A DNA stretch of 64,000 bases, taken from assembly GCA_010405405.1 (NCBI GenBank), contig MU004230.1, forward strand, positions 3,134,627 through 3,198,626, written 5' to 3'. A program made the position numbers and the translations under genes. Positions 13,500 through 35,348 of this stretch are shown piece by piece (within the stretch, counting starts at the first letter, position 1; every line of letters begins with the position of its first letter). This DNA is from Microthyrium microscopicum (lineage: Eukaryota). Under the pieces are notes generated by a model, which saw only the letters and a program-made list of their open reading frames with translations, did not search any database and was not told the origin of the DNA.

Positions 13500-14158
13500 A
13501 TGTCTGAAACCGACACACAACCTCAGAATCAACCCTCGTGCCACCGTTGTAAGAAAAACAAGCCAGAGAATGAGTTCTACCGCCTTCACACAGGTGATCT
13601 ACATAAGTGTTGCATGGAATGTAGCGTAAGCTGTTGTTATGCATATTATTGACAAAGCTAACTTCTTCAGGACTACATCAAATTTCACCAGAAGCGAAAA
13701 CGCGATGAAGCTAAAGCAACTAAAGCAGCCCAAGAGACTACTCGGGCCTTTGTGAAGGCGCAGCGACAACAAAAGCGCAGAAAAAAAGGTGGTGAAGTCG
13801 AAAGTGTATTCGCGAAGTCAAGTGATAGTGACACTACAATAACCCGACCTCCTAGCACTGTGGTACCTACCAGTGCTGTACGTTCTTTACCACAGCCGCG
13901 TACTATCACTGTCCTTGGATATTCTGTATGTTTCTTTAGCCCACTACGGCATTGAGAGTCTGCGACTAATTGGCCCAGGTACCAGCAACGCGCCCAGAGC
14001 CCGAAATCTTAATCAAGAAGCAGCGAGGCAAGCCTAGTGCCAAGGATAGAATAAAGTCAGCTGGAGAGAAGACAGGAGAACAGCTATATCCAGTCGAAAT
14101 ACTTCCAAAGAGCCGCTCTGGTCCACTCCAATACGCTGAGATAATACGGCGATGGTGA
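13500..14158 (+). CDS. Orphan N-terminal CxxC..CxxC zinc-finger protein (family member 1)
   Basis: ATG 13500. Exon 1 encodes MSETDTQPQNQPSCHRCKKNKPENEFYRLHTGDLHKCCMECS. Introns 13626-13670 and 13926-13978 (GT..CTAA..CAG, both phase 0) join to the basic NLS-like segments KRKR and KRRKK. Stop at 14158. Confidence 0.75.
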
Positions 14159-14749
14159 CAACCTTGAAGTTAGAGTTGACGAGCTGCACTACAGGAAGTC
14201 TTCCTGTGAAATTGAAGATCGACGCGGATGGCCATTTTTATGTTAGACTATTGCTATCATAATTTGATTAGTTGACTTGGCCCATGATTCAGCTGCTTTT
14301 CTTTCATTCTGGGTGAAGCCTAGCCATGAAAATATTGTCTGCGATGTGTGATGTAAACCTTGCGTTCCCGCTGTATCTCCTTGTAATTTTCATGGATGTT
14401 GTTCTTGACTATCTGCTCTACAAAGTCGGTAAGTCGCGACTTCCCGCAGCTCTTGAATGAAGACAGTTCCTTATCAACTGGAAGACGTGGTCACCAGAGC
14501 TGGTTGGTCGGCGCTGCAAACTATTTTTGACGATCAAAAACACAACTCAAAGTCTAGCCAGCTTCTCTGTTCTCTCTTTCTTTGCTTCATCAAACTTTTA
14601 CGCAACCATTGACTTCCATTGATTACTCCCATTGTTACCTTTTTTCCTAGCCAACCAGACATCAGCCATCAAGCAACCAAAGTCCCTTTCATATCAGATC
14701 ACGGCACATATCGAGGATCTCTTATTTATCACCAGGACCGCCGATTACG

Positions 14750-15435
14750 ATGGCACGAGGACGGGGGAAAGACGAAGGGAAACGTCAATCTCGGAAATCG
14801 AAAAGGCCACTTGCATCGCGAGTGAAAGCGACGAAGCCACCGGCACCAGCAAAAACCAAGAAGAAGCCTCGTCAAACGGGCGCCGAATTAGCTTTGTCTC
14901 GACTGCAAAAGCTCTGTGACAAGTGCAGAAAAGTCAGGTGTCCTCGCTGCCACAAGAAGAAGGCCCTCGGGACGGAAATCAAGATCAATCTTGTTTCATG
15001 CGAAATGTGTCTTGTGAGACTCTTGATACATTTTTGATTCCACGCTGACGCTCTCTTTAGGAAGAGAGGAGGCAAAAGGCACAGGAACGAACGGACAAAA
15101 TGAAAAAAGCTCTGGCCGCTGAAAGAGATCAACTTAAACTCACTTCTGAGGATCTCCAGGACGAAAAACCAATCGAGTCCGAGTCTAAAGAATCCAAGTC
15201 TGAGAAATCCGAGTCTGAAAAATCCGAGTCTGAAAAATCCGAGTCTGGAAATCCCGAATCTGAAGATGCTGAGCCAAAAGAAATCGAGCCAATCAATTCT
15301 GAACCTATTGAGTCTGAGGCTCAAGAATCTGACGCTGTTGAGCCGCAGTCCGAAGACTCCGAGCCTAAAGCATTAGAGCCTGCAAAGTCCAAGTCATCTA
15401 CCGAGTCCGAGGATGAATCACATTTTTGGGATTAA
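14750..15435 (+). CDS. Orphan zinc-finger protein with basic N-terminus and acidic SEKSE-repeat tail (family member 2, divergent)
   Basis: CDKCRKVRCPRCHKKKALGTEIKINLVSCEMCL, then phase-0 intron 15014-15060 (GTGAGA..CTGAC..TAG), in frame with ORF 15100-15435. The protein ends ESHFWD. Confidence 0.7.
15172..15262 (+). repeat. Coding 15-bp tandem repeat (GAGTCTGAAAAATCC-like) encoding ESEKS repeats
   Basis: About 5-6 imperfect copies visible in the sequence and in the translation IESESKESKSEKSESEKSESEKSESGNPESE. Confidence 0.8.
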
Positions 15436-16214
15436 CCCAGTCAAAGCTATTGGGTCATGCCTCACTGTCGTCTGCACACTCTTCAAACCATGTAGGCTTG
15501 TTGACTAGAACTGATACAATCTAAACGCTCATTCTTTTGTCTGCATCTTTGCCGCCATATTTTAGTGTGCGATTGTATCACCTCTAAATGCATATGATGC
15601 AAGAATTTGTTCAGTGCTTCAGGAGGTTGATATAGATAGGTAATTACATGATAGTTCCGTTGTAGTGCGCTAATGAAAGCAACATAGTGGCCGCAAGACT
15701 AAACACGAGGAGCATCTGTTTGATAGTGTCTCCCCCGTACCTGGAAAGTTCCTTACAGCCCAACTGAAAGGTACCCATCGGGTGCCTGTCAATGCTCTCA
15801 AGACCCTCTTCAGAAAACTGTCCGATAAGTCGAGAACGAAGCTAGACAGTGGTTGATATACATCAACGGACATGTGAGGACCCTCGCCGCTAGCTTCTGA
15901 GGCGGCCTCTTGAACTTGCTAGCAATGTGGATGCGTGCCTTCACGACCTCAGAAGTGCTGAGAATCTGTCTTTGAGCGGAGAGTGCAGTATGAATGAATG
16001 TTCCAAGATCTCCAGTCGGCTGCGTTTTCACTTGATGCAATTGAAGGCTTTCAGTGATGTCAAGATTGCTAGCGGAGGTAGAGACAAACACAAGTCTGGT
16101 CATGTTCAAAATCTAATTGTGCTACGACATTTCCCCATCGTTACTATTCAAACAACGCAACAATCTTCTCATCGCGCAGACTAGCTACGGCCAGCCATGG
16201 CCATTCCATACCGC

Positions 16215-17337
16215 TTAGCTGTCCTCACTTACGCGGTCCCACTCCTCGTTACGATCTTCCTCTGTCTTTCTCCACCGCCATTCCAAGTGAGTAAAGAACT
16301 TACACCGCTCAGGATAGTTTGGGTCTACCGAACCGTTAGTACGCATATCTCTAGCTTTTGGAAACGGTTGGCTTACCTAGGAAATGTAGTCCTTCGACAG
16401 GTGGATATCTTGAGCGAATCCAGTATAGAAAGCCAGTATAAGGTACACCATACTTGGTTGCGGCTTCTTTGATGAGTTCTTCGCGAGCGAGCTGGAATCT
16501 GCGCTGGATTTGTCTTCTAACTTCAGAACCACTGGGACGTGGAGGAGGACCCATGGATCCGTTGGCAGGAGGCTGTGGTGCTGGGCTCCGGTAGCCCGTG
16601 GCTGGGCGCTGAGTAGGTGCATTGAAGCTGGATGCTGGACGGGGAGGAGCCATGGAACTATTGGCAGGATGTTGTCGTGCTGGTGATTGATGACCCATGC
16701 TCGGTCGCTGAACATAGCCATTGATGACAGGTGCTGGGCGAGGATGAGAAGCCATAGATCCGGTGGCAGGAGATGATGGTGTTGGAGCTTGATGGCCCAT
16801 AGTCGGTCCTTGATAATGCGGATTGAAAGTAAATGCTGGACGTTGAACTGGAGCAGGCGCAGGATTCGTGGAAGCATACGAAGCATACCGCTTTCCGGGA
16901 TACGCTCGAAGATCAGGGTCTACTGGTATAGTCCCGCGGTTCATGATCGCGGTGGCAGGTTTTGTGGAATCGAAGGAAAGTGTAGAGAAAGACGAGGAAT
17001 GATATTCTGATATAGTGGAAGCAGCGGCGGTACCCACTCCCGCGAATGAGGTTACGAATGAGGTTACCGGTGATTTGGAGCATTGTATAATATCTGAGGT
17101 GACTTAGGGAATAACATTTGCCAATGAAGTCACTTCGGGTACTTTTCGGCTTGATTGATGCTTATTACAATGGGCCAAAAAAGTCACTCCATTCCTAGAT
17201 CTTGGAAAACTTTGATCTCTATTTATAACTTTACGACATTTGGAGCATCTCTTCTTCCAAATCCCGTCTTCAAACCATTCTGCGCAAGCGCTTTGTCCAA
17301 AAGGAACTTTTCGATCACGTTTCTTTGCACTTTCCAT
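16215..17337 (-). CDS. Orphan zinc-finger locus with Pro/Gln-rich repeat region (family member 3; 5' junction uncertain, possibly frameshifted)
   Basis: Exon from ATG 17337 encodes CSKCRKVINRDQSFPRSRNGVTFLAHCNKH. Downstream ORF 17037-16351 carries three QRPxMGHQxP..PA.GSMAP repeats. Intron 16376-16325 extends it to a stop at 16215. The candidate intron 17142-17094 (49 nt) does not join the two frames. Confidence 0.5.
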
Positions 17338-18041
17338 GTTATTTAATTTAAACATTTAAGTAGAGGAGATTTTGACATGAGAAGCGAAAATATGAAATTC
17401 TGTGATCAGACTTGATCAACGCATGGAGAAGAACTAGTCTAAAGATATTACAGTGTTGCCAGTCACATCATGGAAAGTTATGAATAAAGCCATTTTCCTT
17501 TGATTGCAAGTGGAGTGTTAGAAGTTATAACGCCTTGCTACATCACTGGATGTTCTTACCACCATAACACAATCCCAAGATTCTGAAATTATGGTCCATG
17601 TGGCTGAAATCTTATTGAATTGAATTTCCATGCTGAGAGCTCAGATGAGGTTTCCTTTTACTGTTTCTGAAGAAAGTTCTACAATGGGTCCGATTCGAAG
17701 GTCACCTGAGTCAGTAACATGTTAGAAAATAACGATTGAGGATGATGAGGCAGATCAAAATCTCTATGAGAGGGGATTCATTGAAGGTCTCCCAGATGTG
17801 ACTAGCTTACATTACTATTGATGCCATTGATGTCTCAACTCAACTTTCACCACATGCACGCCCACCACAAGGCTGAGCACAAGGCTGCCAAGCCCGAACA
17901 ACCCTAACCTCAGCACAGACACACCCAATCAACAAAACGCCTCAACGACTTTCTCCGAGAGATTCATACTCACTATCCCACGAGCTTAAATCAGCACCAA
18001 ACCACCTCAATCCCCGCTGTTTCCAGCTCAATCGACACATA

Positions 18042-18572
18042 ATGGGCTTCCTCGACACTCTCGCCAGCTTCGTGCCCTTCTCCGAGGCCGTGCACGCTGA
18101 CGCGCCGCCGAAGGACGAGCCGGAGGACGCTGCACCCGCTGACGACTCGGAAGATAAATCCAAGGACGAGGAGTCAGAGGAGGACGCACCCGCTGAGGAA
18201 GACGCTGCTGAGGAGCCGGCAGAAGAAGAAGAGGAAGAAGAAGAGGAGCCAGAGGATCCTAAGGAGAAACTTGAGACTGGTGAGTGTGGCGGAGAGATGG
18301 CGGAAAGATATATGATGGGGCTAATTGTGGTATAGAATGCAAGGAAAGTGCGCAGTGCAGCAAGTATAAGAGCCACTATGACCATTGTGCGAAGCGTGTG
18401 GACGAGCAGGTTGAGAAGAATGGAAAGCCGGAGGAGGACTGCGTTGAAGAGTGTAAGTTGAAATCTGTTATGATTCAATGGATGTGAAGCTAATCTTGTG
18501 ATTATAGTCTTCGAACTCGTTCACTGCGCGACGAATTGTGCTGCTCCTCAGCTATGGAAGCTCCTCAAGTAA
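18042..18572 (+). CDS. QCR6: Cytochrome b-c1 complex subunit 6 (hinge protein)
   Basis: Acidic N-terminus. Introns 18280-18335 and 18453-18507. Spliced hinge domain DPKEKLETECKESAQCSKYKSHYDHCAKRV...EDCVEEFFELVHCATNCAAPQLWKLLK. Confidence 0.93.
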
Positions 18573-19206
18573 ATCACGGATTTTATACATGGTGGAGGGG
18601 ACAAAATGGACGGAGCTGTGGTAATTCAGCGCTTGCACTTGTACAAAATATCGTGGTGCCGTTGGGCTCACTTGTGTATTAGCAGAGGTTGGAGACTTAG
18701 ATGCGCAATATGATAGACGATTGTTCACTTCGCAGTCTTGCAGGATGGTATAAAATGCGGATTCTGGCGTTGAAATCTTGGATACTAACTACTCCAGAGT
18801 AATTGCGCTCTGCCATTTGGCATTGAGCATACAGCCAGTTTGACTGTGTCATTCTCGAGCATGGAAACAGAAACCCGTAAAAATTGAGAATCCTTGCCCT
18901 ACCAATACCGCCATTTCAAAGTCTGCGTCTCGTCATTCAATGATATCTCAGCTAGTACACCATCCATAATACGCTACATATCGCGCGGTCAAGAGCCACT
19001 TCACCAAGGCTCAATTATTCATATATCAACGTCATTCAATTCCTATGTACACGAGCCATCAGACTTTCCAATCATGTACAAGCTCACATATATCTTGCTG
19101 TGAAAATTCATATCCAAATAAAGCATGACCACGGCATGCCAGCCAATGCGTCCAATGCAACGCAAATACAACAAAAAGAAATGAAATCCATCACAAGCCT
19201 GAAAGT

Positions 19207-21035
19207 TTATCGTAAAGCCAGCCGTCTCTGCTGCGCTCTCAGTGTATCCGGCTCAGGCACCGGATTCCCTTCATCCATTGCGAATCGTTTCCGCTCTTCA
19301 CCATCAAGGCCTAAGGCTTTGAGTCCCAGGCCCATGGGCACTACGGCCACGAGACAGCAGATGATGGCTTGAAATATGAGTGCCCGCTGCATATTGCCAG
19401 GCGGGTAATCTTTCGAGGGCGGTGTACCGTCTGGATCTTTCAACTCGCCCATAATAATCGTGAAAATGCCACCAAGCACCTGTCCGCACGCCCATAGCAC
19501 CACGGATGACCCTTCAGGACCGACAGGAAACGTCACTTCTACGGTATACTCCAGCGCCGTCGGCATCAGACTAAACGACGCAGCGCCTAATATCGCAAGT
19601 ATAGCGTATGGCGCAGCAATAGTACGTGTTGCTGGTGCAAATAGGAAGGCGAGGTATGAAACAGCCGTGATGGGCACGAGTACTTTGATAATTGGCACAT
19701 AGGCGTGTACCCTATCATTGACGATGGAGACTGCGATGGCGGCGAGGATGCCGACGATGATGAGAATGCCGCCTGCAATGCCAGCCTCGTCTTCGGTGAA
19801 GCCGTATGGGGAGAGTATTTGGTTGATGAGGGAGGAAGTGGCATTGAAGAAGCCGACGTAGGTGGCGAAGGGAATGAGGATGAGGTAGAAGGACTTGTTG
19901 TGGGATAGTTGGCGGATTGTGTCGGAGAGGGGCGCTTTGGGGACTGAGGAGGCGGGGGAGACGGGTGTTGGTGGGCGCGCGGGGATAAAGAGGGAGGGTA
20001 TTGTTGCGACGGAGGACTGTGAGCTGTTAGTTTTGTGAGGTGGAAAGTGGTGAGGAGTCAATTACTATTATGGCGACGTAGAGAACCATTGTTGGGATGG
20101 ACTTCGGGTCTTTGGACACCCATGATGGGGCTATCAGTTGGCCCAACTACGAGTTGTTAGCACATCTTCTGCCCTTCGCTCGAGGCTTCAACATACTGCT
20201 CCTCCTAGTGGGTTCGCCAGTGACGCAAAAGCAGTCGCTGTCGTCCGTCCCTTGTCTGTAAACCACAGATCGCTATATGTCGTGGGAGCCGAAAGCACAA
20301 ATGGCTGCGCCAACCCGATCAACACCTGTCCCACCATGACCAACGGGTACATCGCCTGTTTGGTACCCGCATATCGAAGCCAATTCCCAACCAATATCAA
20401 CGCGCTGGATACAAGAATCGCAAGTTTAGGACCTCGGTGGAGGGTGTAGACCGTGATACTGCGGCTGAAGTTAGCTTTCTGCGCTGAGACATGATAAATC
20501 GTGGCTGCGTTGAACTTACGGCGCACTGATCACAAAAGCAAAGAGAAACCCGGTACTCAGCCAATTCACCGCCGTCTCCGTAACATTTAAATATTGCGCC
20601 GTGGTGGATGAAACAGCCGCAAAGGTCAGCCACTATGTCGCAACGTCAGTATGCATCCGTCATGCAGCACGGGCAAGTTGAACGTACATCCCAACTGACG
20701 ACAATGTTCAGCAAGATCAATTGTATGAGGCCAAACCACCGGCGCTTGTATGTCCTAAATTCTGGTTCCATCACGTTGCGCGGCGCGCTGCCAGCCGATG
20801 GCGAGGATGATGCGACGGACATTTCGTGGGCGATGGCGCTCTTGTCGTCGCCGGGCATGACTCTATCGTTGCTGGGATCAATGTCGAGCCATTTGTAGGC
20901 CTTTTGTGAGGGGTGTCGTGGTTGGTGTCTAGGGCGGATCAGATAGTCTTGACTCACGCTGCTGTCGAGGCTGGTGTCTGTTCCTGGGCGTATAGAGTCA
21001 AAGTCTGGAGGACGAGGAGACTGAGTGGAATGCAT
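19207..21035 (-). CDS. MFS transporter (FLVCR/SLC49-like)
   Basis: FRTYKRRWFGLIQLILLNIVVSWD|WLTFA, GQVLIGLAQPFVLSAPTTYSDLWF, ASLANPLGGA and multiple TM segments. Several GT-AG introns (e.g. 20687-20633). The start could be a downstream Met. Confidence 0.88.
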
Positions 21036-22555
21036 GGCGGGTTGGCGGTTAGGTTGATGATCCTCACGAGATCAAGATGGGAGAGTCCAGCCCAGAGTGT
21101 AACGGCAGGCGTACCTGGGGCCTGGGGTATGTAGCGGCAATGCGCGATAGAGTGGAAGGAGTGGTACAGTATTCTGGTTTGCTGGGGATACGGCAGTAAT
21201 TTGCCTGCTCGGCGCTGCAGCGTACAGGTGCTGGGTGTAACAAGCGCGGTAGAAACGAATGTACTGTTTGATCAACCGCCGAAATCGATGGTGTAGAGAT
21301 ATGCGGGGACTACTACTGGTTACAACGACACAACCATCACCAACATCTTGATCTTGATATCTAGATCAATCCAGTTCTCCGCCCTGGATGTCGCAAAATG
21401 GATTAGACCGTCTAGCATAAGACAAAAGCGCAACTCAACAACGAGCAAAGTGGTCGAAATGAATTCATCCTGAAAGTGATCTACATGACCAAAAGTAAAC
21501 CAATGGAGAGCCGCAAGCACCATCTCGCGTTCCGACCGTCATATACATTAAATTCAACATCAAGAGGCCTTGCAATTCGCCGACGCTAAATGAATATTTA
21601 ATTCTTACAACCACCATCTGCAAGGTACTAGTCTCAACCAACCATAGTGTTCTTCTAAAAAGGTACCTGTATACTTCCGTGGTAGTCCCTCGGCCAGGAA
21701 TATCTACAAACTATACCACATAGCACCAGAATATACTCTGAGCCTTCTGAGCCTCTCAGCCCTTTCAATGTGACAGTCGGCCATAATTCACTGACCTAGC
21801 CAAAAAAGGCAGATCCTCACATGGGCCGTCAGATGCTGCCCCGGTCTCCACTATACTTTCTGTTCGTTTTCTCGAAGGATCAGAATTGTCCTTGCCCAAT
21901 GCTCGACCGTACCTTTTTCTCCATGCTCTCTAGAGAGCGTATAGTTTTAGTCAATATAGTTCCCATCCATCGGTCCACTGCCCTAACAAGGAAATCTGCT
22001 CCGCCGTACGAAAAAAGCGGCGGCCTACTTGGCACTCTGGCAGCATCTCTGATCTCTATCTTGACCGTCCATTATTGCCACGCGGCCATGTGCTTTCCCA
22101 CATGGAAAGTACAGAGTCGCGCCTAGGGGCCGGAGCGGCTCAGTAGAATAGTGGATTGATCAACCCTACGCTGCTTACATTTTCTTCCTCAGCTCTTCCG
22201 AATACCGTATTTGGCAAAACACTCTAGAAGCAATATCATCCTCGCCGCACATGGAAACGGTCCCATCGAAAAAACAGTCGTTGGCTAGTAAACACTTGCA
22301 TTGAACCTGCGTGAACAAAGTAGTGTTGATCGCTCGTTCGAAATAGTAGCCCCGGCCTTCCACCATGCATATCCAAACATTTTCCCAAGCTCTGCAATGG
22401 TACCTGTTCGACAAAAACGTGCAATCCTAGGCCGATTTCCATCATATAAATTAGCCAGGCTAGACAAAATGATAGTTTTTATTCTCATAAAGGGCTCAAA
22501 GAGCAGCAAGCCTTACCTTTTGAGAACAACCCAGCGGCCAAGCTTAGACAAGCTT

Positions 22556-24718
22556 TCAGCGGCTCTCTGCGCGTTCGAGAAGCGCATTTCCAACTTCGAT
22601 GGGTGTGTATGTTGTGCGTTCGCCCTTCTTTTGGGCCCATAGGATATCGCCTTTGAAGTACACGATGACCCCTCCTCGACCTGTGGCGGAGGCGGTGATG
22701 CGAAATAGGGGAAGGCCGGTTGCCTCGTGTGCTTCGCGGAGGGGCATCATTAGTAGACTTTCTTCCTCGCACCAGGTCTCGACGATGTCTTTGAATGTGG
22801 TTTCTTCGTTGGGTTGGGCGGAAGAGGTAGTCTCTGCTGGAGCTGGTATTGGTATAGGGTCGATGAGTGGTCGAGCTGGGCCAGCTGCTGGTTGGGGGAG
22901 TTGATCTTTGCCTTCTTCGCCAAGTTCTAAGGCGTGGTTGACCATGTTCCAGCCCTTCTCCCACATCTCAGCTACAGTCTTTTGCTCGTTGAGCTCTGCT
23001 GGTATTTGTTCTTTCCACCATTGAAACCACTGTCCAATCTCTTCGTAATTCGACGACTCGCTGGTAAGCCAAGTATGTAGTGTCATAAGCCACTTGGGGA
23101 AAAACTCTGTTACCAGTAGCTGTGCTGTCGCTCGGATTGGTAGCAGATCTTTCCAAGCCAGGACATTTTCCAGTGGGGTAAGATCTTGGTCCGGTGGATA
23201 AACCTCAAATTCAGCAGTCATGTAAGCCGCAAGTCGAGGCAAAAGATGCTTCACTATTGTGTGTTGTAAAGTCGTGCCGAGAAGAGGTGCCCATTTGTCG
23301 ATGCCAGGGAGTAAACCTTTGTTAACATCCCACGAGTCTAATGCAACTCGCAGCTTTCGATTGACATCTGATAGAAGGCCAGTTGCCGACTGGGGATCGA
23401 TATGATATTGAGGAAGGTATTCCAGCCACGGAAATATCCAGGTATGAGGAAGAGGATACTTGTGACTTTTCTTACTTGATGCACGAGGATTCCATGACTG
23501 CAGTTTTGATATCAATTTTTGAACAACCATGGTCATAATTGACTCGACCACAAAATCCGGAAGTAAAGGTTTCCAGGCCTGAAAAAGGGTGACTAGTTGA
23601 GACGGGTGATAGGCGTCCCACTCGTTTGTAACGACTGTCCGCAGCTTTGGTAGCCAATATGTATAGATGAGCGACTCGTAGGTTGTAGTTGCTCGTTTTC
23701 TGCCTAGGCCATTCTCTGGAAAATCGTCGGTGTCATCAGGCATAAGCATTGGCGCAAGACGAGTCAGATATGCGACAAGCCGCTTAGGTTCTTCGAGAGG
23801 ATGCCAGTCTGCTATTGCGTGCTTGAATAGAGGATGAATTGAAGCGACTGCAACTTCATCCAGGGATAGATGATGCAAGCTTCCCGCATACTTTCGCTGT
23901 AAGCTTTCGAGCTGTTCAGTCAATCTCTCCCACGATTCAGCCTCTGCAGAGATATCAAGGTTGAGCGTAGATAACGCCTCGACCGCATTCGTGAGCTCCT
24001 CGATACTCTCCGTTTGAACTTTCGCGTCTTGAGCTTCTCGTTTGGCCTGCTCTTCCTCAACATCAATCATCTTCTTGCGATCCTTTAACTCCGTCCAAGT
24101 ATCCGCAAACGCCTCCAGCTCTTTCCGTGCGCGCACCGCCAACTTCTCAGTTTCCACATCAACACCAGTCGTTATGGTAGCACTCGTAAAAATCCCCTGT
24201 CCAGATTCCAACAACTTCGTCTCCCTTCCCGTGGCATCAATGATATTGAGCAAAACATTCGGCACGTCCAATCCCTGCGTGGCCTCCTCAATATCTGCCG
24301 CAGTGCGATACTTGACTTTCTGTTTCGCCGGCGCGCGTGGCGTACTAGTACCACTTCCGCTCGTAAAACCTGGCTGTTTTGTCCGCTTCTTGCGAGATCT
24401 TCTCTCCTCTTCCGAGCTATCTTCATATTCCTCACCGCGTTGTTGTGCGCGCCGCTTTTCTTCTTCTTTGGCTTGTTTGGTCTTTTCGCGAACGGCTCCG
24501 AGACCGACGTTTTGCGGGCGCAGACTGACTTCGATTGGGGCCGTGATGCCGTCACCGGACTTGCCGAGTCCTTCGCCGGTCTTGTGACCCATTTTGGCCA
24601 TCATGCGCTCGGCGAAGGAGAGCTTTTTGCCTGCGGGCGCGGAATTGTTGCTGCGGGCCATTTTGCGGCTGGGATCGTCGGTGAAGTGCGCTTTGCGCTT
24701 TGCGGGTGGGTGGTCCAT
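22556..24718 (-). CDS. SPP382: G-patch / GCFC-domain spliceosome disassembly factor (TFIP11/Ntr1/Spp382-like)
   Basis: G-patch SFAERMMAKMGHKTGEGLGKSGDGITAPIEV..GLG, a Trp-rich GCFC region (W..WYxWW-like IGQWFQWWK) and C-terminal TFKDIVETWCEEESLLMMP. The likely ATG is 24718. Confidence 0.88.
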   Translation of the reverse strand: MDHPPAKRKAHFTDDPSRKMARSNNSAPAGKKLSFAERMMAKMGHKTGEGLGKSGDGITAPIEVSLRPQNVGLGAVREKTKQAKEEEKRRAQQRGEEYEDSSEEERRSRKKRTKQPGFTSGSGTSTPRAPAKQKVKYRTAADIEEATQGLDVPNVLLNIIDATGRETKLLESGQGIFTSATITTGVDVETEKLAVRARKELEAFADTWTELKDRKKMIDVEEEQAKREAQDAKVQTESIEELTNAVEALSTLNLDISAEAESWERLTEQLESLQRKYAGSLHHLSLDEVAVASIHPLFKHAIADWHPLEEPKRLVAYLTRLAPMLMPDDTDDFPENGLGRKRATTTYESLIYTYWLPKLRTVVTNEWDAYHPSQLVTLFQAWKPLLPDFVVESIMTMVVQKLISKLQSWNPRASSKKSHKYPLPHTWIFPWLEYLPQYHIDPQSATGLLSDVNRKLRVALDSWDVNKGLLPGIDKWAPLLGTTLQHTIVKHLLPRLAAYMTAEFEVYPPDQDLTPLENVLAWKDLLPIRATAQLLVTEFFPKWLMTLHTWLTSESSNYEEIGQWFQWWKEQIPAELNEQKTVAEMWEKGWNMVNHALELGEEGKDQLPQPAAGPARPLIDPIPIPAPAETTSSAQPNEETTFKDIVETWCEEESLLMMPLREAHEATGLPLFRITASATGRGGVIVYFKGDILWAQKKGERTTYTPIEVGNALLERAESR

Positions 24719-25362: not shown

Positions 25363-25788
25363 ATGGACAACATGGCAGGATGCTCAAAAGAGCACGGCAA
25401 GTCTAGACCTCTTTATGAGTTTCCGTTGAAGGACAACAATAGAGGCCGATATGCCAGCTGCTACTGGTGTCTTAACCATCAAAATCCTTCCATTTTGAGC
25501 AAGCCGCCTGCGGCTCCACGACCTGCTAATCTTGGACCCCCTCCGGAGAGCTTCGATCCTCTGACCCCCCGACAATCTCTTTCAACCGCTACGCAAGCGA
25601 CTGTGCCCCAAGCTGCTGCCAATCCAGCCTCTACCAATCAGGCTACTACTGCCCAGACCAACACGACTCAATCTACTGTGGCCCAGCAAGCTGCTCCGCA
25701 GTTATCTGGAGCTCAAGCTACACGTGTCACTAGATCACAGGCAGCTGCGATGGAGACAGCATTAGGTCGCCGCCGCTCAGCACCCTAA
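25363..25788 (+). CDS. Orphan zinc-finger protein (family member 4; CxxxH..CxxC variant)
   Basis: MAGCSKEHGKSRPLYEFPLKDNNRGRYASCYWC followed by an Ala/Thr/Gln-rich tail. TATAAAA at about 25232. Intronless. Confidence 0.65.
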   Translation: MDNMAGCSKEHGKSRPLYEFPLKDNNRGRYASCYWCLNHQNPSILSKPPAAPRPANLGPPPESFDPLTPRQSLSTATQATVPQAAANPASTNQATTAQTNTTQSTVAQQAAPQLSGAQATRVTRSQAAAMETALGRRRSAP

Positions 25789-26539
25789 GCTGAACGCAAT
25801 GCCAAAGGCAAAGTAGCTAGCTCACTAAGTCTGAGCTCGGTCCAGACTAGCGGGTGGCATTCAAGTCGCTCAATTTGGCGTATGCGAATTCGAAATGATG
25901 TGTCGTGGATATGATGGTGTTGGGCAAGTCGCACCATGGGCCTTATGAATATAAGGTATGAGCCTCAGTGTTATCGCGATGACGGTAATGAGATGAGCAC
26001 ATCAAGTACAATCTTGTATTTTTTAACACGGACATAATTTTGTTTGATTGCGCGATATTGGTGTCGCGTTCGATAGCCTTTCATAGCTAGAATCAAGTAT
26101 AATTAAACCCATAACACGACCTCTAGCATGAAATAGTAGGATGAAAGAGTAGCACGGAATGTGTTCAAAGCCCCAGGTGCGACTGCGCAGTTTGTTAATT
26201 TGTTGAGGCAGGTCTGATGGAGCCCGCGTCGCAAAACACCCCATGACGATTGCAACACTCGCAAATAAGCAAACTCAGATCACTTGCTGGGAAGCTCATC
26301 GGCAGCCATTCTCTATAAAGCCTCTGTTATCCCTCGCGATTTATTCATTCTACAATTCTAAGTTTCAGGGGCCTTGAACAAGTCTTTGCAGGAGTCTGAC
26401 ATCAAATCAGTCAACTTAGATCTTTGGCATCCAAATCTCGCGGCGAACACAGGCAACGTAAGGTGTTCAAAACCTCCGTTTCTGAAATAGTGTTATCTCG
26501 TCTTTTCAAAATTCACCACAGTTCAGCCCAAACTCCAAC

Positions 26540-27481
26540 ATGGCTCCTCGTCCTCCTCCTGTTCCTCGAATCGTCGAAACCCGGGATAAGCCCGAGGAGC
26601 AGGATCAGTCCGGCCTCATTGGAGAAAAGATTACCCTGTTCTGGAGCAATAAGAAAGTCGATGCGTTAGTATGGCGCAAGTATTTGCTTGACACAGATGA
26701 CAACGCTGGTAAATGGGACTTGGGCCCAATCAGTGCTCCTATTTTACACGACGTTCCACCTCCCGAGGAGGACATATCTCAGAAATACCCAGAGAGAATC
26801 TTCAGTAGTTTCGCTCCAGCAGCGCCGTTGGAGATCGACAAAGAAGCTGGAACCCAGACTCTACCACCAGGCCTCCACCCGGAAGCCATGTGGCACATTG
26901 CCAACTGGCTTCTTGCGGTTTGTAAATCCGACGTCACTGAAGGGAAGGATCTTCCTAAGCTCTACGTCCGCGGGGACTATTTTCTCTCGTATTGGGACTT
27001 CTATCGCGCCTTTCATGCTCTGGAGTTGCAACGTTACATGAACATGTTCAAGGACAAGCTCATACGCTACGTCAACTTCAACGCTCTCTCAGGTTGGGAG
27101 CTAGGTGAGATCCTCAGAGACTTCAAAGATGCGCGTGATGATGAAGTGGTGAAAGCTATCGTAGAGGCTACAACCAAGGTTCTGGACGACCCAGAAACAC
27201 CGGAAAAGTGGGCCTGGCCTGTTGTCGATCGTCTTAAGAAAGTCAGCAAATATTTGATGTCAGAAGCCGTCGAAAGATACGAAGCCTCACACGAAAGACC
27301 ACCAGAGGAGGTAAAGAATAGACCTCAGGAGAGCTGGCATGGCAGCACGCAAGTCGACCCACAAGAGGCACAAGATATCCCGCAGGAGGAGGAGAGGGCG
27401 TACTGGACGCCAGACAAGATCCAGGACTGGGGTGCCAACACAGATGACAATACACAAGACGACCCTTCCCCGGCGTGGTAG
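26540..27481 (+). CDS. Hypothetical 313-aa protein, possibly divergent BTB/POZ-like fold
   Basis: Long intronless ORF with upstream TATAAA (about 26314). Segments ITLFW..ALVWRKYLL, TLPPGLHPEAMWHIANWL and YWDFYRAFHALEL resemble fungal BTB-like proteins. The domain call is by recall only. Confidence 0.6.
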   Translation: MAPRPPPVPRIVETRDKPEEQDQSGLIGEKITLFWSNKKVDALVWRKYLLDTDDNAGKWDLGPISAPILHDVPPPEEDISQKYPERIFSSFAPAAPLEIDKEAGTQTLPPGLHPEAMWHIANWLLAVCKSDVTEGKDLPKLYVRGDYFLSYWDFYRAFHALELQRYMNMFKDKLIRYVNFNALSGWELGEILRDFKDARDDEVVKAIVEATTKVLDDPETPEKWAWPVVDRLKKVSKYLMSEAVERYEASHERPPEEVKNRPQESWHGSTQVDPQEAQDIPQEEERAYWTPDKIQDWGANTDDNTQDDPSPAW

Positions 27482-28252
27482 CAGCCACCGGGCCAGAGTC
27501 TTGGACTTTCATAATGATGCGGAGTGTTTGCATATGTGGGTTGAATATGGCTCAACCTGGGAGAAACGGAGAGGACTTCAAGGACATGCAGGTGGTAAGA
27601 ACCTAGAAGATGGACTTTTGGGCCTTGGAATTGTTCAAGAGGTAGTTCTGTAGTCTCTCTTGTCTCTTGACCAAGATGAATCTTTAATCAGGAGTCTTAG
27701 TACCTTCTTTTCATTTCTCCTACATGTAATGATCAAGGCGTTCTCAACAGAGAGTTAGTCGTGACCCAAGACAGCAATGGTCACTTTGATATTCTCTCTC
27801 ACCACTTTTTTTTTGGCGAGGGAAACATCTTATAAGATGGAGAAACGCTTACTTGCACACGATTCCTACTTGATCTTCAGATTTGGTTTGATTACGTCGG
27901 CATTAGAGTAGATGGTAACATCATGTCTCTTTCGTGGGAAACTTCTACAACATGGGTCAGGACCTAGTCAATGGAGAGGGCTCCCAATATTCCAGGTGAC
28001 TCAAGCTACACGGTAAATATTGACTATTGTGTGGTCGGCTCCTTCCCAGCACTCGAGATTTATTTAAGGTGACTGGTGATACCCACCTTAGGATAGCCTC
28101 AGGATAGCTCTGCTTTTTATCCTCGTAGCCTTGAGTGAATTTTGTAAACAATGTCTACGTAATAAATAATTTCCCTCCCATTGAACACAACACTCGAAAT
28201 ACACACGGACTCTCTGCACGAAATTCAAAATTCTTCAAACCGACGCACTTAC

Positions 28253-28993
28253 ATGATGTCAAATCCAGCGAGCGCAATCAATACGACCGCCACCACGCCA
28301 TCCGCAACAACAAGTACAACAAAAAGATGTTCGCGCTGTCGCAAAACATACCTCCCCCTCAGCGCATATGACACCAATCCAAAAACCGGTCAGCTCTTCG
28401 CTTGCTGTCGCGTGTGCTACAACCCACCGAATGGACCCGCCGTGCCGCCTCAGGCTCAGACAGGAATATTGAGACCAGTCACACTCACGCGCCACAATAC
28501 CATGACTACTAGTACTCATAACCTTCGCTGCGCTCGCTGTAGACGCAAAGATTTACCAATAGAAGCATATGGGAGCAATCCAAAGAAAGGCAACCAGCCG
28601 TATGCTAGTTGTGTTCGCTGTCGAACCTACCAGGCCAATCAGTATAATAGATCACCTGCGGCAGTCCAAGCCGCTCGATCAGGCCAGACAAATCGGCCGA
28701 TTTCCAATACTCCTGCTCCAGCTCTTACACAAAACCAGCCACCTGCCAGCAAAACTAATCGTCCTTCGGCGTCAGTCTTCCCTCCTAGGTCGCCAGTCAG
28801 AGATCATCTATCTCCCAGCCGCTCTTTTTCCAACCGAGCCTTCGATAAGTCTTCCTCACAAGACACTGAAAGTAATGGGACTGAGCCTTCAAAGGAATTT
28901 GGTCTCGCCTTTCCGTCCATGAGTGACCTTTCCGAATGCTTTGAAGAGCCGGTCAGTGATCAATTTCTAGCCAGCTTGGCACACGGCACGTAA
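28253..28993 (+). CDS. Orphan protein with two tandem zinc fingers (family member 5)
   Basis: CSRCRKTYLPLSAYDTNPKTGQLFACCRVC and CARCRRKDLPIEAYGSNPKKGNQPYASCVRC, a Pro/Ser-rich linker and tail, and an acidic-hydrophobic C-terminus. Confidence 0.8.
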   Translation: MMSNPASAINTTATTPSATTSTTKRCSRCRKTYLPLSAYDTNPKTGQLFACCRVCYNPPNGPAVPPQAQTGILRPVTLTRHNTMTTSTHNLRCARCRRKDLPIEAYGSNPKKGNQPYASCVRCRTYQANQYNRSPAAVQAARSGQTNRPISNTPAPALTQNQPPASKTNRPSASVFPPRSPVRDHLSPSRSFSNRAFDKSSSQDTESNGTEPSKEFGLAFPSMSDLSECFEEPVSDQFLASLAHGT

Positions 28994-29592
28994 GCAGAAT
29001 GAATGGCAAGCTCAGATCAAGTGCGATGTCAAAGATTGCGACTGATGAGCGCTCGACAGTCAGAGTTTACATCGGTTGACGCAGCAAATTGCAAGAGCAA
29101 ACAGTACAAAGGTCAGTTGTTAGGTCTCGTAGTGTGATAGAGTTCGACGGTTATGGCTCCTCTTTCATTCCAAGCTCGTTTCCGTTGGAGACCCCACGTA
29201 CTTAGTCTTCTACCTGAGAAGCAAATAAATAATGAGAATATCTCCTACATCCAGGTCATATGCACGATCAATTAGCACCTTCAATACCGAAGCACGTTGG
29301 TCTCTACGTAGTATCAAGTCTGGTATGTGGTGAACTTGTCAGAAAATTAGTATTTGCTATGTCCTCATGAAGATGTTTTGCTCCTTTTCTAATTTAAGGT
29401 CTGTGGCAATCGATGATGATATTCGCAATAGATCCTCCGTATCTGAGAAGAAAACTCCGTGTCATAACCGACAGATAAGGTCCAACTTCTGCGTCTCTAA
29501 AGCTTGTCAGTATACCACTCTGCAATATTAGCATATCGCATCACAGTTGCAGAAATCTTTCAGCTGCGAGATATACTTACTCCGCACCAATC

Positions 29593-30156
29593 ATGCAAGC
29601 TTACTCAAAGAGATGTTCACCTGTATATTTACTGCGACCGGCAGATGACTTGTACCCAACAGAGAATGGCGAAAGGTTGTTCCTTCATTGCAAGAGGTGC
29701 CAGTGAAGTAGCTCTGTCAATGCCAACGGCATACCTCACGCCCTTTCTCGCTACATTAGAGTAAGTTTAGTAGGCACGACCATTCTTCAGCACCAAGAGT
29801 AGATTGCTTCACTTCGGGAGGTACCAGCTAGAGCTCTATATCACCAAAACCATCCCAATAATGGAGTAACACCTCCACCTGCCCCCAGATCTGGACCTGT
29901 ATCATCATCGGCACCGTCGATTAACACGGCAGCACCAGCAGCACCGGCAGTCGTGAGAGTGCCGCCAGCAACAGCAACACCCAGAGCTGCGAGAGCACAA
30001 ATAGCTTTTGTGGTTACTACAATCAACCCAGCAACCACTCAAAGCGCTGACTCGCCCACTTCCGTAGCAACAGGTTATGATCCGATGAGCGGTGCTCTCG
30101 GCGATGCTACTACATCTCTTGCTGTGGATGTTGATGGACCGGAGGAGAGAGGTTAG
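29593..30156 (+). pseudogene. Degenerate zinc-finger family member 6 (premature stop)
   Basis: MQAYSKRCSPVYLLRPADDLYPTENGERLFLHCKRCQ* has lost the second Cys and stops at TGA 29704-29706. The frame continues to a GTAAGT donor at 29761. A phase-0 acceptor at 29802 joins an Ala/Pro/Thr-rich frame ending at 30156. Confidence 0.55.
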
Positions 30157-30568: not shown

Positions 30569-31626
30569 TCACAAAAGTCCAGATTGCAGGTTTTCAGCCG
30601 GTAGAGGCTTGTCCCAAACAGTAAAATTCCCCGTCACCGATCCTCGGATCCATCCCAGGCTTGAATCCAAATAGATTGTGTAATTGAATCTTTCGGGTGC
30701 ATCGATCGATTTCCCAGGCTCAACAGGAGTGTCTTTGCCGATGATGGGAAGCGCATGAACTATGGCATCATATTCCACTAGGAACTGCTTGTTAGATGAC
30801 GTCCGAGAACGACATAGCTTATTGGAAACACTTACTACCATCTCGACGAGTGAGAACTTTCCAGCGAGCTTCAGGGAGAGCCTTCTTATCAGCCAACTGA
30901 TACGTCACGCTGAACTGGAAAATGTACATGTCAAACACGGTTTCATGGTCTGGTGTCTCAAAGTCGTGTTCACTGCTTGGGTTCTCGAAGGGTATTTTGA
31001 AGAGACGAGTAGCTGTAGCAGTCTCTGGAAGCTTTTGGAGCAGGATGCGAAACTTATTTTTGCGGGAGTCTAGAGGAATTGTATCTGCAGTGCCACATTA
31101 GCTTTGGAGCGTTGCTCAATACAATGCAGGATATACCAGAGGTTTCGTCGGCGCAGTGCCACGTCTCAACTGCATGCGTCAGGTCTGTCAAGCTACTCTT
31201 GAAGACGGGTTTGGTCTGCGAAAGCCAATTGGAAGAGTCATTATCCGATTCGTTGTCCTGTTCGCGTAGTTGTGAGTTTTCAACATCAAGCTCTCCATTC
31301 AGCCCCTCATTACTAAGGCCTTTCTCGTCATCAGCTTCCCCATAGATCTCGCCATCATCTTCTGGGCTCTCCCTAGATGCGGCAGATGCTTTTTTTCTCT
31401 CCATTTCTTTCAGGGCTTCTTCCTCAGCGCGAAAGACTCGCTGCAAGCGGTAGTTGTCGGAATCTCCTTCCTTTAGCGCTGTCTTTATGTACGCGGGAGC
31501 GTCGCACTTTTTGCAGGCGGCAAACCAGTCACTACCGTCGGCGAGTGGCCAGAACCAGCGTTCTATTTGTGGTAATTTCTTACCTTTGCCTGGGTTACGC
31601 TTACATCCTTTCGAGCAAATCGGCAT
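30569..31626 (-). CDS. Zinc-finger family member 7 with additional C-terminal globular region
   Basis: ATG 31626: MPICSKGCKRNPGKGKKLPQIERWFWPLADGSDWFAACKKC, then an acidic linker. Introns 31136-31085 and 30835-30778 give an open frame (DTIPLDSRKNKFRILLQK...MYIFQFSVTYQL...YDAIVHALPII...FNYTIYLDSSLGWIRG). The 3' end may extend further. Confidence 0.65.
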
Positions 31627-32379
31627 TTTGACGAAGTACTTCCGAGCGTTTGTATTTAAGTGACAGCCCAAGGGAACAGGAGATGACAGAGAATAACGAG
31701 GAAGTCGACCTATGGATAAATAACGATAACTGGTAGACGTTGTGTGAAATGATTCGTGTTTGGACTGCGAGGCGACAGGTAGCAAAGCTGCGTGACACTA
31801 CGAAGACAAAATCTGGAGTGTTCAAACGATTTCTACAAACATCATTGTGAGATGATGCTCACGAGTGTCGCGAACTTCATGGTGTAGTCTGAGAAATACC
31901 CAAGATCGATCTCGTGGTCAGCACCCCAAACACGAATGCTCAATGTTGGTAAAGAAGTTGTATATCAAAAGCAAATAATAGGAGCCGTCATAGATTGTTT
32001 TTGGATCTGTCATGTCACAAGTACAATATAAACAAAAATATCAAGAAGTTTCTCAAGAAGTTTTACATGGGAGAGAAAATACTGCAATTCAGGTCATAAT
32101 TGATATTTTCGCGTCCTAGTCTGCAAACATGTTAACTGTACAGAAGGAAAGCTTTTCCAATGTTAGCACACGATTGACATTTATGCCTGGAAGAACCTCT
32201 ATAGGTTCGGAAGGGATGGTATTAGTAAAAAAAGGAAAAAGGGAGGTTGGTGAGTTTTCCACCTGGAAATGAATTTGCCCTACGTCATACTTTAATTATT
32301 CTTTCGTCTCTCTGATTGGTTCCTGAAGTAAGACCTTTGATTGGTTTATTTGGGGACAGGTTTCCGTTATTCTAATTGG

Positions 32380-32504
32380 CTCTATCGTCCTCTATTGGCC
32401 TCTATCGGCCTCTATCGTCCTCTATCGTCCTCCATCGTCCTCTATTGGCCTCTACATAATCGTCCTCTATCGGCCTCTATCGTCCTCTATCGGCCTCTAT
32501 TATC
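32380..32504. repeat. 10-bp minisatellite (CTCTATCGTC / CTCTATCGGC / CTCTATTGGC)
   Basis: About 12 imperfect tandem copies seen directly. Confidence 0.9.
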
Positions 32505-33278
32505 CTTAATCTCTCCGCCAATGAGCTATTATATGAGCTTCTAATGTTTAGGTAGATAATCGCCCTTTCGCCACGGTTCTTCCAGGCCTTCACGGAGCAG
32601 AGATTTATCGTGCTCCTATCTATTTCTATTCCTACTCGAATTCCTTTCTTAAATTGCTTGATTGCTCAAGTCAGGTGTTTTGAACCCAACAATCAGTGCT
32701 GGTGAGAAGTTGGATTTAGCTCACAAGGTGCTTTGAATCTGAGCTCTGATTGGCTGATCAGCTCTATTGTGCGTACTAGCGTAGCCTTGTGGGTCAGTTC
32801 GATCAGTTTTGTCAGCAACAAAATAGCGCATTCCGGTTTGTAATTGATTTTGAACTTGAAGCTAATGGAAGGTAGGAAGCGACATGAATTGCCAGGTTCT
32901 GGATTCAAACGCGGGTTGTCCCCATTGTCGAGGTTGATAATCTGGCTACAAATATATGCTTAAGGTGGATCCTGTTTTATACTTGAAGGATATCAACCTC
33001 CGACCTATCGCTGGTGGTGACTGACTGGTGCTTTTGCTTTGAAGACCGCAAGAGCCTTGTGGAGCCGGCCACCTCCTCGATGGCGCGGCCATATCTATAA
33101 CCTCAATCCATTCACCAGATGCCACCTCCATGATAACGGGTGAAAGAGCAATGGAAGTCGCGATCTTCACCTTAGTCTCTGCCCTCTAGTGCGACGCGTA
33201 TATAAAAATATTCGAGAACCCAAACACCTCTTCCCCATCAACACCGCCATTTCTCTAGGACTTGAAACACTGCCCAAT

Positions 33279-34157
33279 ATGACCAACACCGTGCCGCCTC
33301 CGAAACCGTGGCCTTCAGGCCTACTATGGTGCAGCAAGTGTCGAGGGTTTCATCCAGCGGCTGAGTTTGGCATGAAGAAAGATAGTAGCAGTCCATATAA
33401 GACCTGTAACCACGCCCGCAGACTTTCGCAAGTATGTTACACCCAACTGGAAGTAGTGTCTTGCTAATAAACCGAACAGAGCACTCCTGTTGTTTCTACT
33501 GCAGCTACTTCGTCAATTCAGACCACATCGTTAATTCAAACTACCTCGTCGATCCATCCTACCTCAATATTCCATCCTGCCTCAGGCGATCCACCAGTTG
33601 GTGCGACTTCTGCTGATCTTATAACTGCGACCGCTCCAGTTAGCAGTACTGTTACTGTTCTCGTCCAAAACGCAATGCCACCGCAGCCACATACGGGGAC
33701 TGTCGATCTTGATGCCGATGGGGACACAAATATGGGGGATACGTCGTTTGCTGCTCAAGGTAAGTTGATGGCAATCAATGACTAGGAAACCCAGGTCTAA
33801 CAATGCATAGAAGGATTTCCAGAAGCAGAAGCAGAGGTAGGCGACGCAAAAGAAGGCAACCCAGCAGAAGACGAGGTAGTGATGGATGATACAATACAAG
33901 AAAACGGATCAAGTTATGCAGCGGCCCCAGAGAAAGACAGCCGGATGGATGAAACAAAGGGAGACGAACAGGCTACAGAACAAGACACGACGATCGATCC
34001 GACTGCCTCGTATAACACAGTCCCACGCGACTTCAGTGCTCTCTTCGGCTCTGAAAATTATGCCTTTCCGTATCCAGGGGATGACGAGATAGACGAGCTT
34101 GACTGGCAGGCGAAGATTGACGCTTTTGACTGGGGTAAACCGTCATCCGAGTCGTGA
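33279..34157 (+). CDS. Zinc-finger family member 8 (CxxC..CxH variant) with acidic C-terminus
   Basis: TATATAAAA at about 33199 and ATG 33279. Finger WCSKCRGFHPAAEFGMKKDSSSPYKTCNH. Introns 33432-33479 (phase 0) and 33760-33810 (phase 1) give a continuous frame ending DELDWQAKIDAFDWGKPSSES. Confidence 0.8.
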
Positions 34158-34464
34158 ATCTTGACTTGGAGTCGTTACTTCGAGCATGCGGGAATTGAAC
34201 AAAGCCTTTGTCGAAGACGGGGAGAACAGCGTATAGATCATCTCCTTCATATCGTGTCATGTGCCCATGCTTCACCTCATTTGATTCACCAAGTCCGATC
34301 TCAAGGTCAATAAGCGAAGTCTGGAATGGAGGTGCTACATTGGTCACAGAGCTCTTCGACATCTCCATATGGAAAGCTCAAATGATTCTAATCTTATTCT
34401 CGGTCCAACACCACTCCCAACCTTGCATCCATTAAGTTTTCCAGTACTGATAGAATTTTCCAAA

Positions 34465-35348
34465 ATGATGCACGCATGCCCTCCTGGCCACAGCCATTGC
34501 AATAAGTGCCGATCGTGCGTGCCTAATCGCGGATTCAATATCAGGAAAGATGGCAGCGGCCCTTACAAGCACTGTAATCGCTGCCGAAAAGAGCCAGATA
34601 ATCCAGTGGTATGTCATGACGAAACAAACAGAGATGATCTCGTGCTAATTGGCACAGTCAAATGCCGCTACAAAGCAAATACTGTTTCTGTTGCAGCAGA
34701 GTCCCTGTCTATATATGAACCATCATCGAGTGTAGCTGCATTCCCAGAGCATATCGTCACTGTTCTTGTCGAGAACGTACTTCTCACACAGGACTCTACA
34801 ACCACTGCCCCTTCTGACACTGACGGAGATATCGCCATGGCGGAGGCAACCCTTCCCACTCAAAGTAAGTTCACCTCAGCCCGCGAGATAAATAGTACGA
34901 CTAACGCCGCATAGGCCAAGCACCAGTTTCAGCAACAGAACCCGAAGAAGACATGTTAATGGACGACGCAAACATGGAAGGAGCAACTACTCCGCAAAAC
35001 GAGCCGGCTGAGGAAGCGACTATCGAACATGACCCTCCGATAGAAGTAGCCATGGCTGAGGAAGACAAGTTGATGCACGTCGCAGCAGAAGAAGACGACA
35101 TGACTGCAGAGCAAGATGCACCAGCCAATGCGAGCCGGTCAAAGGACCAATCGCAAGAGACCGAAGAGGTCGTCAAACCCGAACATGATTATTCGACTGC
35201 CTTAAATGATCCCTCGGAGCCAATTGAGCCATTTCCGCGTATTCCCACTGTTGAAGAACTCGACGCTGAGTTTGATGATATCGTTGACAATTTCGACTGG
35301 AGCGCGCCTCCCTCATGGCCAAGCCCACCCAAACGCAAGAAAGAATGA
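34465..35348 (+). CDS. Zinc-finger family member 9, tandem paralog of member 8
   Basis: HCNKCRSCVPNRGFNIRKDGSGPYKHCNRC. It shares VTVLV(E/Q)N...D.DGD..M and a phase-1 intron (34865-34914) with member 8 and ends EELDAEFDDIVDNFDWSAPPSW. The first intron-like segment (34609-34657) keeps the frame only if retained. Confidence 0.7.

Follow-up and report, generated by a model that had tools for sequence, protein, structure and literature searches.

Stc1 of fission yeast (Schizosaccharomyces pombe; Pfam PF12898, InterPro IPR024630, structure 2LUY) was first described as a LIM-like protein; its tandem finger is needed for association with Ago1, the H3K9 methyltransferase complex is still recruited when the fingers are mutated, and the family is found in fungi and algae (PMC2875855). 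Fusarium graminearum and Neurospora crassa in which the stc1 homolog is knocked out stop developing before asci are formed (PMC5509106; review, PMC6562746); these knock-outs are all that the literature searched gave on the role of Stc1-type fingers in filamentous fungi, and no paper describing an expansion of Stc1-domain genes in fungi was found in open-access full text. Nine small loci of the leaf-litter fungus Microthyrium microscopicum (numbered 1 to 9 in order of position; Table 1), situated between positions 13,500 and 35,348 of a 64,000-nucleotide stretch of contig MU004230.1 (assembly GCA_010405405.1, forward-strand positions 3,134,627 to 3,198,626; hereafter the window), are compared here with Stc1 and with other proteins that possess similar fingers. 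The two-finger gene of the window (locus 5) is 100% identical, by protein search, to hypothetical protein BT63DRAFT_450121 of M. microscopicum.

Judged from sequence comparison, seven of the loci, with eight fingers among them, are supported as bearers of a common finger type, one more is a probable bearer (31626-, locus 7), and one is unsupported (14750+, locus 2). The finger, which is shared and probably zinc-binding, spans about 35 residues with the pattern basic residue, C-x2-C-[KR]-x3-P-x3-[FY]-x6-9-G-x2-[YF]-x2-C-x2-C. The explanation considered probable is that the loci are a species-restricted family of small, fast-diverging genes, formed by local duplication, whose members have nothing in common but one Stc1-type Cys4 finger; the finger would dock, and the differing tails would recruit.

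The finger and its database relatives

The original prediction placed ten finger peptides at nine related loci, and all ten were recovered at those places in a six-frame translation. A strict C-x2-C-x12-30-C-x2-C arrangement is present in half of them (those at 13539, 14939, 28328, 28529 and 34498), and the other five (17247(-), 25381, 29614, 31617(-) and 33330) have variant ligands, with a histidine, a missing cysteine or an insertion. The first knuckle of locus 4 is degenerate (C-S-K-E-H, the second cysteine being replaced), and that of locus 7 is C-x3-C (CSKGC), followed in the alignment by approximately eight extra residues inserted in the first half of the finger. The aligned fingers have in common a basic residue before the first cysteine, the sequence C-S/A-K/R-C-R/K, a proline with an aromatic residue four positions on, a glycine, a second aromatic residue, and the closing C-x2-C.

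A profile made from 73 finger segments of 36 proteins from outside the window (described below) was run against 1548 six-frame pieces of the window. Its scores were 37.0 bits for the finger at 28529, 36.8 for 28328, 32.3 for 33330, 30.6 for 13539, 28.0 for 34498 and 16.5 for 17247. The fingers at 25381 (14.5 bits) and 29614 (13.6 bits) were matched in part, by the second half of the profile alone. The best unrelated piece of the window scored 5.6 bits, and two of the predicted fingers were at noise level, 31617(-) with 4.7 bits and 14915 with 4.4. The claim that the fingers are a real paralogous set, standing above random cysteine-bearing pieces, is thus upheld for eight fingers (13.6-37 versus 5.6 bits). 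Leave-one-out profiles made from the window's own fingers, in which the two fingers of locus 5 were not separable, both being in one piece, gave 20.4 bits for locus 9, 19.9 for locus 8, 16.0 for locus 3, 11.2 for locus 6, 9.9 for locus 1, 9.4 for locus 7 and 4.8 for locus 4, against a noise level, set by the best unrelated six-frame pieces, of 6-9.7 bits (up to 7.8 in the test of locus 7).

The two loci at noise level with the external profile differ in standing. The stretch at 14915 in locus 2 did not match the nine-finger profile at E<100; its six cysteines are in another arrangement, and it resembles locus 1 solely in the position of an intron, which in both is of phase 0 and follows the last CxxC by one codon; its membership in the family is not supported. 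Locus 7, which begins MPICSK, has six of its first seven residues in common with the external member P0024 (BLASTP E 7e-4), and is probably a divergent member of the family. Neither the window profile nor the external profile detected further members in the remaining 42 kb. The nine related loci of the original prediction were therefore an overcount, since 14750 fails both profile tests, and seven loci with eight fingers stand above noise.

The nine-finger window profile (locus 14750 excluded) was searched against 1.84 billion representative proteins at E<=1e-3. It matched 43 proteins, of which five are the window's own (P0001, P0002, P0004, P0006 and P0012), two are multi-haem cytochromes c, rejected as CxxCH false positives, and 36 are others that contain the full motif, often in two to six copies per protein. 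The Stc1 model PF12898 is matched by 13 of these 36 outside proteins at E<=0.1 and by three above its gathering score of 24.8 bits (P0009, 51 bits; P0035, 48 bits; P0010, 27.2 bits), which the window profile matches with E-values of 9.9e-9, 4.3e-4 and 5.2e-8, respectively, at residues that overlap the PF12898 match (78-112 in P0009). By this transitive link, the window fingers are homologous to sequences that Pfam accepts as Stc1. Many of the 36 also have sub-threshold matches to DUF6510, and seven carry HNH, endonuclease VII, GIY-YIG, T5orf172, Bro-N or AntA domains above cut-off. Twenty of the outside proteins were looked up, and all derive from metagenome or run assemblies; just two of the 20 are labelled with an organism, one being a record from a viral metagenome and the other an uncultured virus whose contig is 650 kb long, and named fungi are not among them.

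UniRef names P0001 (the public model that covers locus 5) a 'Stc1 domain-containing protein', on a basis that is not visible, and the other annotated loci 'uncharacterized'. The finger open reading frames (ORFs) and annotated finger proteins of the window have no convincing Pfam match of any family; the LIM model of Pfam is not matched by the window ORFs or proteins, and Pfam likewise finds no domain of a nuclease or of a DNA-binding phage protein among the ORFs of the finger-gene region. The nearest Atlas clusters of P0001 are mostly from phage, with scores below 0.9 that make them leads only. Two earlier proposals agree with these results: that the fingers are not of the Zn2Cys6, C2H2 or GATA types, and that they are like both the half-domain of Stc1 and the Cys4 module of mobile-element nucleases, these likenesses being seen in the profile relatives, in their domain company, and in a weak structural ranking.

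The predicted structure of a single finger (mean predicted local distance difference test score, pLDDT, 78.5) has two hairpins, the first of them a zinc knuckle, and a short helix. In the AlphaFold model of the tandem of locus 5, both fingers exceed pLDDT 90 and the linker is below 50, from which the fingers are predicted to be two independent beads. Fission-yeast Stc1 (2LUY) ranks first of 220 Foldseek matches to the model of locus 5, weakly (E 0.026, probability 0.51, template-modelling (TM) scores 0.24 and 0.29), and is not among the VIA-align representatives listed for the same model; the leaders of VIA-align are the zinc-finger part of the beta-beta-alpha-Me restriction enzyme Hpy99I (Z 4.4-4.7) and the finger of human IQUB (Z 4.2-4.3), followed by a next row at 2.4-2.8. 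Both Hpy99I and IQUB appear too among the weak matches of the sequence profile to the Protein Data Bank (PDB). Searching solved structures by sequence gave nothing significant and did not find 2LUY; the designed C2H2 protein Aart (E 0.0026) was rejected as an artefact of linker and cysteines.

Gene structure, decay and neighbourhood

The homology of loci 8 and 9 extends from end to end (25.7% identity over 272 amino acids, E 3e-15), and both end in an acidic region with a D-x-F-D-W motif. The parts of the proteins outside the finger are of low complexity and probably disordered, being either basic, rich in Ser, Thr and Pro, or acidic with aromatic residues; the predicted isoelectric points (pI) differ widely, with loci 1, 3, 4 and 5 at 9.7-10.2 and loci 7, 8 and 9 at 4.2-4.9. 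Repeats at the DNA level that would link the loci were not found, and the duplications are therefore old at the nucleotide level. Two or three of the copies look decayed when their reading frames are followed: locus 3 (17355(-)) by a stop codon, locus 9 (34369(+)) by a frameshift after splicing, and possibly locus 6 (29593(+)) by a lost cysteine. The birth-and-death history that had been proposed fits the tandem pair at 33279 and 34369, the duplicated finger at 28253, and these decayed-looking copies.

Table 1. Finger loci and neighbouring genes, in window coordinates
Feature	Position	Strand	Finger	Description
Locus 1	13501..14158	+	13539-13622	Annotated 186-aa basic protein P0012
Locus 2	14750..15435	+	Six-Cys stretch 14915-15010	Basic N-terminus; Ser/Glu-rich acidic tail with 15-nt repeats
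Locus 3	16351..17355	-	17247-17158 (C-x2-C...C-x2-H)	83-aa finger ORF; unannotated
Locus 4	25363..25788	+	25381-25470	Annotated 141-aa P0002; Ser/Thr/Pro/Gln-rich tail
Locus 5	28253..28993	+	28328-28417 and 28529-28621	Two fingers; Ser/Pro-rich tail; public model P0001
Locus 6	29593..29706	+	29614-29700	Finger remnant; second Cys lost
Locus 7	30569..31626	-	31617-31504	Annotated 315-aa acidic P0006; divergent N-terminal finger
Locus 8	33279..34157	+	33330-33413 (ends C-N-H)	Annotated 259-aa acidic P0004
Locus 9	34369..35348	+	34498-34584	Tandem paralog of locus 8
QCR6	18.0-18.8 kb			Acidic gene; UCR_hinge exon
MFS transporter	19.2-21.1 kb	-		MFS_1 (Pfam scan)
TFIP11-like protein	22.6-24.9 kb	-		G-patch and GCFC (Pfam scan)
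TauD, PSP1, SPT2, ribosomal S19, second MFS, DUF829, Cys/Met-metabolism enzyme				Window neighbours (Pfam scan of larger ORFs)

The intron of locus 1 is of phase 0 and starts at 13627, one codon past the last CxxC; that of locus 2 (15014-15060, GTGAGA...TAG, with the frame kept) is predicted from sequence. In locus 3, an in-frame TAA at 17106-17104 ends the finger ORF and is followed in the same frame by 250 further open codons, rich in Pro. No well-formed in-frame intron that would remove the TAA was found at this locus, where there are poor donor sites only, and the exact ORFs are absent from the protein collection searched; the locus is either a recent pseudogene or the holder of an unrecognised intron.

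In P0001, the fingers of locus 5 (residues 24-54 and 92-122) lie on either side of a linker, about 37 residues long, that is predicted to be disordered. The public model of P0001 (373 amino acids) extends the locus to 30153 by means of a tiny exon and an 'intron' of about 700 nucleotides, its tail being encoded at approximately 29785-30153. That 'intron' contains the finger of locus 6, and introns elsewhere in RNA-derived contigs are 48-83 nucleotides long; were a GT..AG intron of 129 nucleotides (29703-29831) to connect locus 6 with the open frame ending at 30153, locus 6 could be a gene of its own. The public model at 28253-30153 is thus probably a fusion of two genes.

Contigs from one public sequencing run, whose RNA origin was only a guess from its label, contain short GT..AG and CT..AC joints, and are therefore taken to derive from spliced RNA. 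They were compared over 20 kb, a span that excludes loci 1 and 2; 26739-30073, where loci 5 and 6 lie along with the orphan gene that starts at 26540, is uncovered, coverage of locus 3 is thin, and the contigs cannot rank expression, nor do such gaps speak for or against expression of the loci concerned. That the loci are transcribed and spliced, as had been expected, was seen in part, with RNA-derived contigs at four loci: spliced joints are present at loci 7, 8 and 9, and locus 4 lies within an unspliced contig of 971 nucleotides (25138-26108). In locus 7, RNA joints with CT..AC ends at the introns 31085-31136 and 30778-30835 (minus strand) match the public model; in locus 8, GT..AG joints do so at 33432-33479 and 33758-33808. 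P0006, the product of locus 7, has no Pfam match and no usable Atlas match; its C-terminal part of about 150 residues (30569-31084, minus strand) looks globular by composition and matches no known family.

The RNA joints of locus 9 are at 34607/34657 and 34864/34915, the first corresponding to an intron of 49 nucleotides (34609-34657). Once these 49 nucleotides are spliced out, the frame of the finger exon is no longer that of exons 2 and 3, so that its ORF stops about 25 codons on, and the full protein of 309 amino acids with the acidic F-D-W tail is encoded in the intron-retained frame only. The RNA contig differs from the DNA at 34440 (T>A). Upstream of locus 8, in a region covered by RNA contigs, a 10-bp unit resembling ATCGKCCTCT is repeated in tandem about 15 times (32364-32521), and the RNA contigs have a GT..AG joint of 83 nucleotides (32792-32874) that is probably an intron of the 5' untranslated region. 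The public annotation is accordingly corrected in three places: the probable fusion at 28253-30153, the out-of-frame finger exon at 34369, and the unannotated finger ORF with a stop at 17355(-).

The finger genes are interleaved with housekeeping genes, as had been proposed, Pfam having identified UCR_hinge (QCR6), MFS_1, G-patch with GCFC (TFIP11-like) and SPT2; the acidic gene at 18.0-18.8 kb is taken to be QCR6 because of its UCR_hinge exon. The G+C content of the finger-gene region (0.46-0.51) matches that of the neighbouring genes. An orphan gene in the middle of the cluster (26540-27481; P0003, annotated as 313 amino acids) is acidic (pI 4.7), has no finger, and has no Pfam match. A single RNA-derived contig of 6289 nucleotides (depth 659; 18105-24769) spans the QCR6, MFS and TFIP11-like genes with seven spliced joints on both strands, and is an assembly merge of adjacent transcripts, not one RNA. 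A block of 17-21% G+C at 48000-58500, flanked by sequence of 47-52% and containing 13 N at 52059-52071, looks like a repeat island degraded by repeat-induced point mutation; profiles did not detect finger remnants inside it.

Origin and function of the finger genes

If the loci are a species-restricted family formed by local duplication, their proteins may be small nuclear adaptors or regulators, of which the basic finger would be a docking module for nucleic acid or for a partner protein, and the variable tail would recruit or activate something else. Turnover of the family would proceed by birth and death, through events such as those that gave rise to the tandem pair of loci 8 and 9, the internal finger duplication of locus 5, and the decaying copies. 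The two precedents for docking point in different directions: the tandem finger of Stc1 is tied to Argonaute, and the finger on viral nucleases most likely holds DNA, to judge by its domain company. An adaptor appears more likely than a plain DNA-binding activator.

Several results weigh against the Stc1-type family. PF12898 is not matched by the window ORFs or by P0001, P0002, P0004, P0006 and P0012, even at hmmscan E<=10, and the link to this model is consequently transitive, passing through metagenomic and viral proteins, plus the UniRef name. The external fingers were originally picked with the window profile, which makes the test with the external profile not fully independent. Locus 2 fails the profile tests and locus 7 nearly does. 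No ortholog was found, word-indexed searches with P0001 and with the nine-finger alignment having returned the window's own proteins only, and no fold match was significant (none at Foldseek E<=0.001 or Z>=5).

The resemblance could be largely due to chance, the loci being unrelated cysteine-rich short ORFs or orphans that happen to be near one another, given that the motif is short, that half of the fingers depart from the C4 arrangement, that four loci have leave-one-out scores (9.9, 9.4, 11.2 and 4.8 bits) near the noise level, and that locus 2 fails every test; but five fingers score 28-37 bits and three score 13.6-16.5 bits with the outside profile, where 1540 other pieces do not exceed 5.6, the non-ligand positions (P, F/Y, G and Y/F) are kept in the outside family too, and the homology between loci 8 and 9 takes in the whole of each. 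Chance is largely refuted for the seven loci, and remains an explanation for locus 2 and possibly for locus 7; as an account of the whole group it is extremely improbable. Hardly more credible, and very unlikely in its own right, is an origin as relics of mobile elements or viruses, in which the fingers of homing endonucleases or giant viruses would have been acquired horizontally, would have lost their nuclease parts, and would now be decaying. Several copies do look broken, the sole organism labels among the 20 external relatives looked up are viral (two, with no named fungi), and the nearest Atlas clusters, though leads only at their scores below 0.9, are mostly of phage. The loci nonetheless have short spliceosomal introns typical of the genome, confirmed by RNA at loci 7-9, share the G+C content of their neighbours, and lie on both strands in among conserved housekeeping genes; nuclease domains, terminal repeats and shared DNA repeats are all absent from them, and the Stc1 family is native to fungi (PMC2875855).

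Two further readings concern function. The proteins could be DNA-binding regulators akin to transcription factors, specific for sequence or structure, with activation domains in the acidic-aromatic tails that loci 7-9 encode (as does locus 2, should it be a member) and with no link to RNA interference. Fingers on HNH, endonuclease VII, GIY-YIG, Bro-N and AntA proteins are among the closest profile relatives, the best VIA match is the zinc-finger region of a restriction enzyme (Hpy99I), the first knuckle is flanked by basic residues in most fingers, loci 8 and 9 end in the acidic D-x-F-D-W motif, and four predicted products have pI of 4.2-4.9 (including the intron-retained product of locus 9 and the fingerless orphan at 26540). 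Yet a lone finger of 35 residues rarely gives specificity, the tails of loci 1, 4 and 5 are basic or neutral and have no acidic domain, and the role of the finger on nucleases is itself only presumed; such regulators are unlikely, although less so than the relics considered above. A more elaborate version of the Stc1-type family, speculative and decidedly doubtful, would make the single-finger genes fast-evolving adaptors derived from Stc1, each combining a finger that docks on Argonaute or nucleic acid with a different effector tail, and so diversifying what the small-RNA or chromatin silencing machinery of the fungus recruits; copies would come and go as in an evolutionary arms race against transposons or viruses whose nucleases bear the same finger.

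Comparison with known systems

The window genes resemble Stc1 in having the same type of Cys4 finger, relatives found with the window profile being matched by PF12898 at the same residues, and in a similar overall order, with one finger or more at the N-terminus and then a long tail that is apparently disordered. Locus 5 also has two fingers, its product carries the name of Stc1 in UniRef, and 2LUY is the top Foldseek match of its model, though a weak one below significance. They differ from Stc1 in that most loci of the window have a single finger, whereas the Pfam domain is a tandem pair of about 84 positions, in that the fingers of locus 5 are parted by a disordered linker of about 37 residues and do not constitute a compact LIM-like unit, and in that the window proteins do not reach the Pfam model.

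The accessory Cys4 fingers of phage and giant-virus proteins with HNH, endonuclease VII, GIY-YIG, T5orf172, Bro-N or AntA domains have the P, F, G and Y at the same positions as the window fingers, and are often in tandem. The solved example of such fingers is Hpy99I (3FC3), residues 55-110 of which are the best VIA match, with a root-mean-square deviation of 2.8-4.4 over 46-47 residues. In contrast to the viral nucleases, the fungal genes have spliceosomal introns, are located among housekeeping genes, and have no nuclease or other enzymatic domain. LIM domains, among which those of MICAL1, EPLIN, CRP2 and LMO4 are weak matches, consist of a fixed pair of fingers that are spaced by two residues and bind through a mixture of Cys, His and Asp, unlike the single, separate fingers of the window.

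The finger of human IQUB (8J07 chain c2, approximately residues 590-650) has the same layout, C-x2-C...P-x2-E-F...C-x2-C, and is the best profile match in the PDB, albeit a weak one (E 0.09; Foldseek TM 0.57 by query) that is below significance and a lead only. It differs from the window fingers in being part of a large axonemal protein, and may represent a hitherto unrecognised relative, in animals, of the Stc1-type finger.

The genes of the window had been put forward as a candidate for an undescribed gene family or system. They are not a new system: the domain is already catalogued as PF12898/IPR024630, P0001 is already named after Stc1 in UniRef, and nothing suggests a system of several components or genes that work together. 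What is new is local, namely a swarm of mostly single-finger derivatives beside a two-finger Stc1-like gene, with copies at differing stages of decay. If this interpretation is true, the locus is a compact natural series in which one docking finger is combined with many tails, and could help in learning what Stc1-type fingers bind outside fission yeast.

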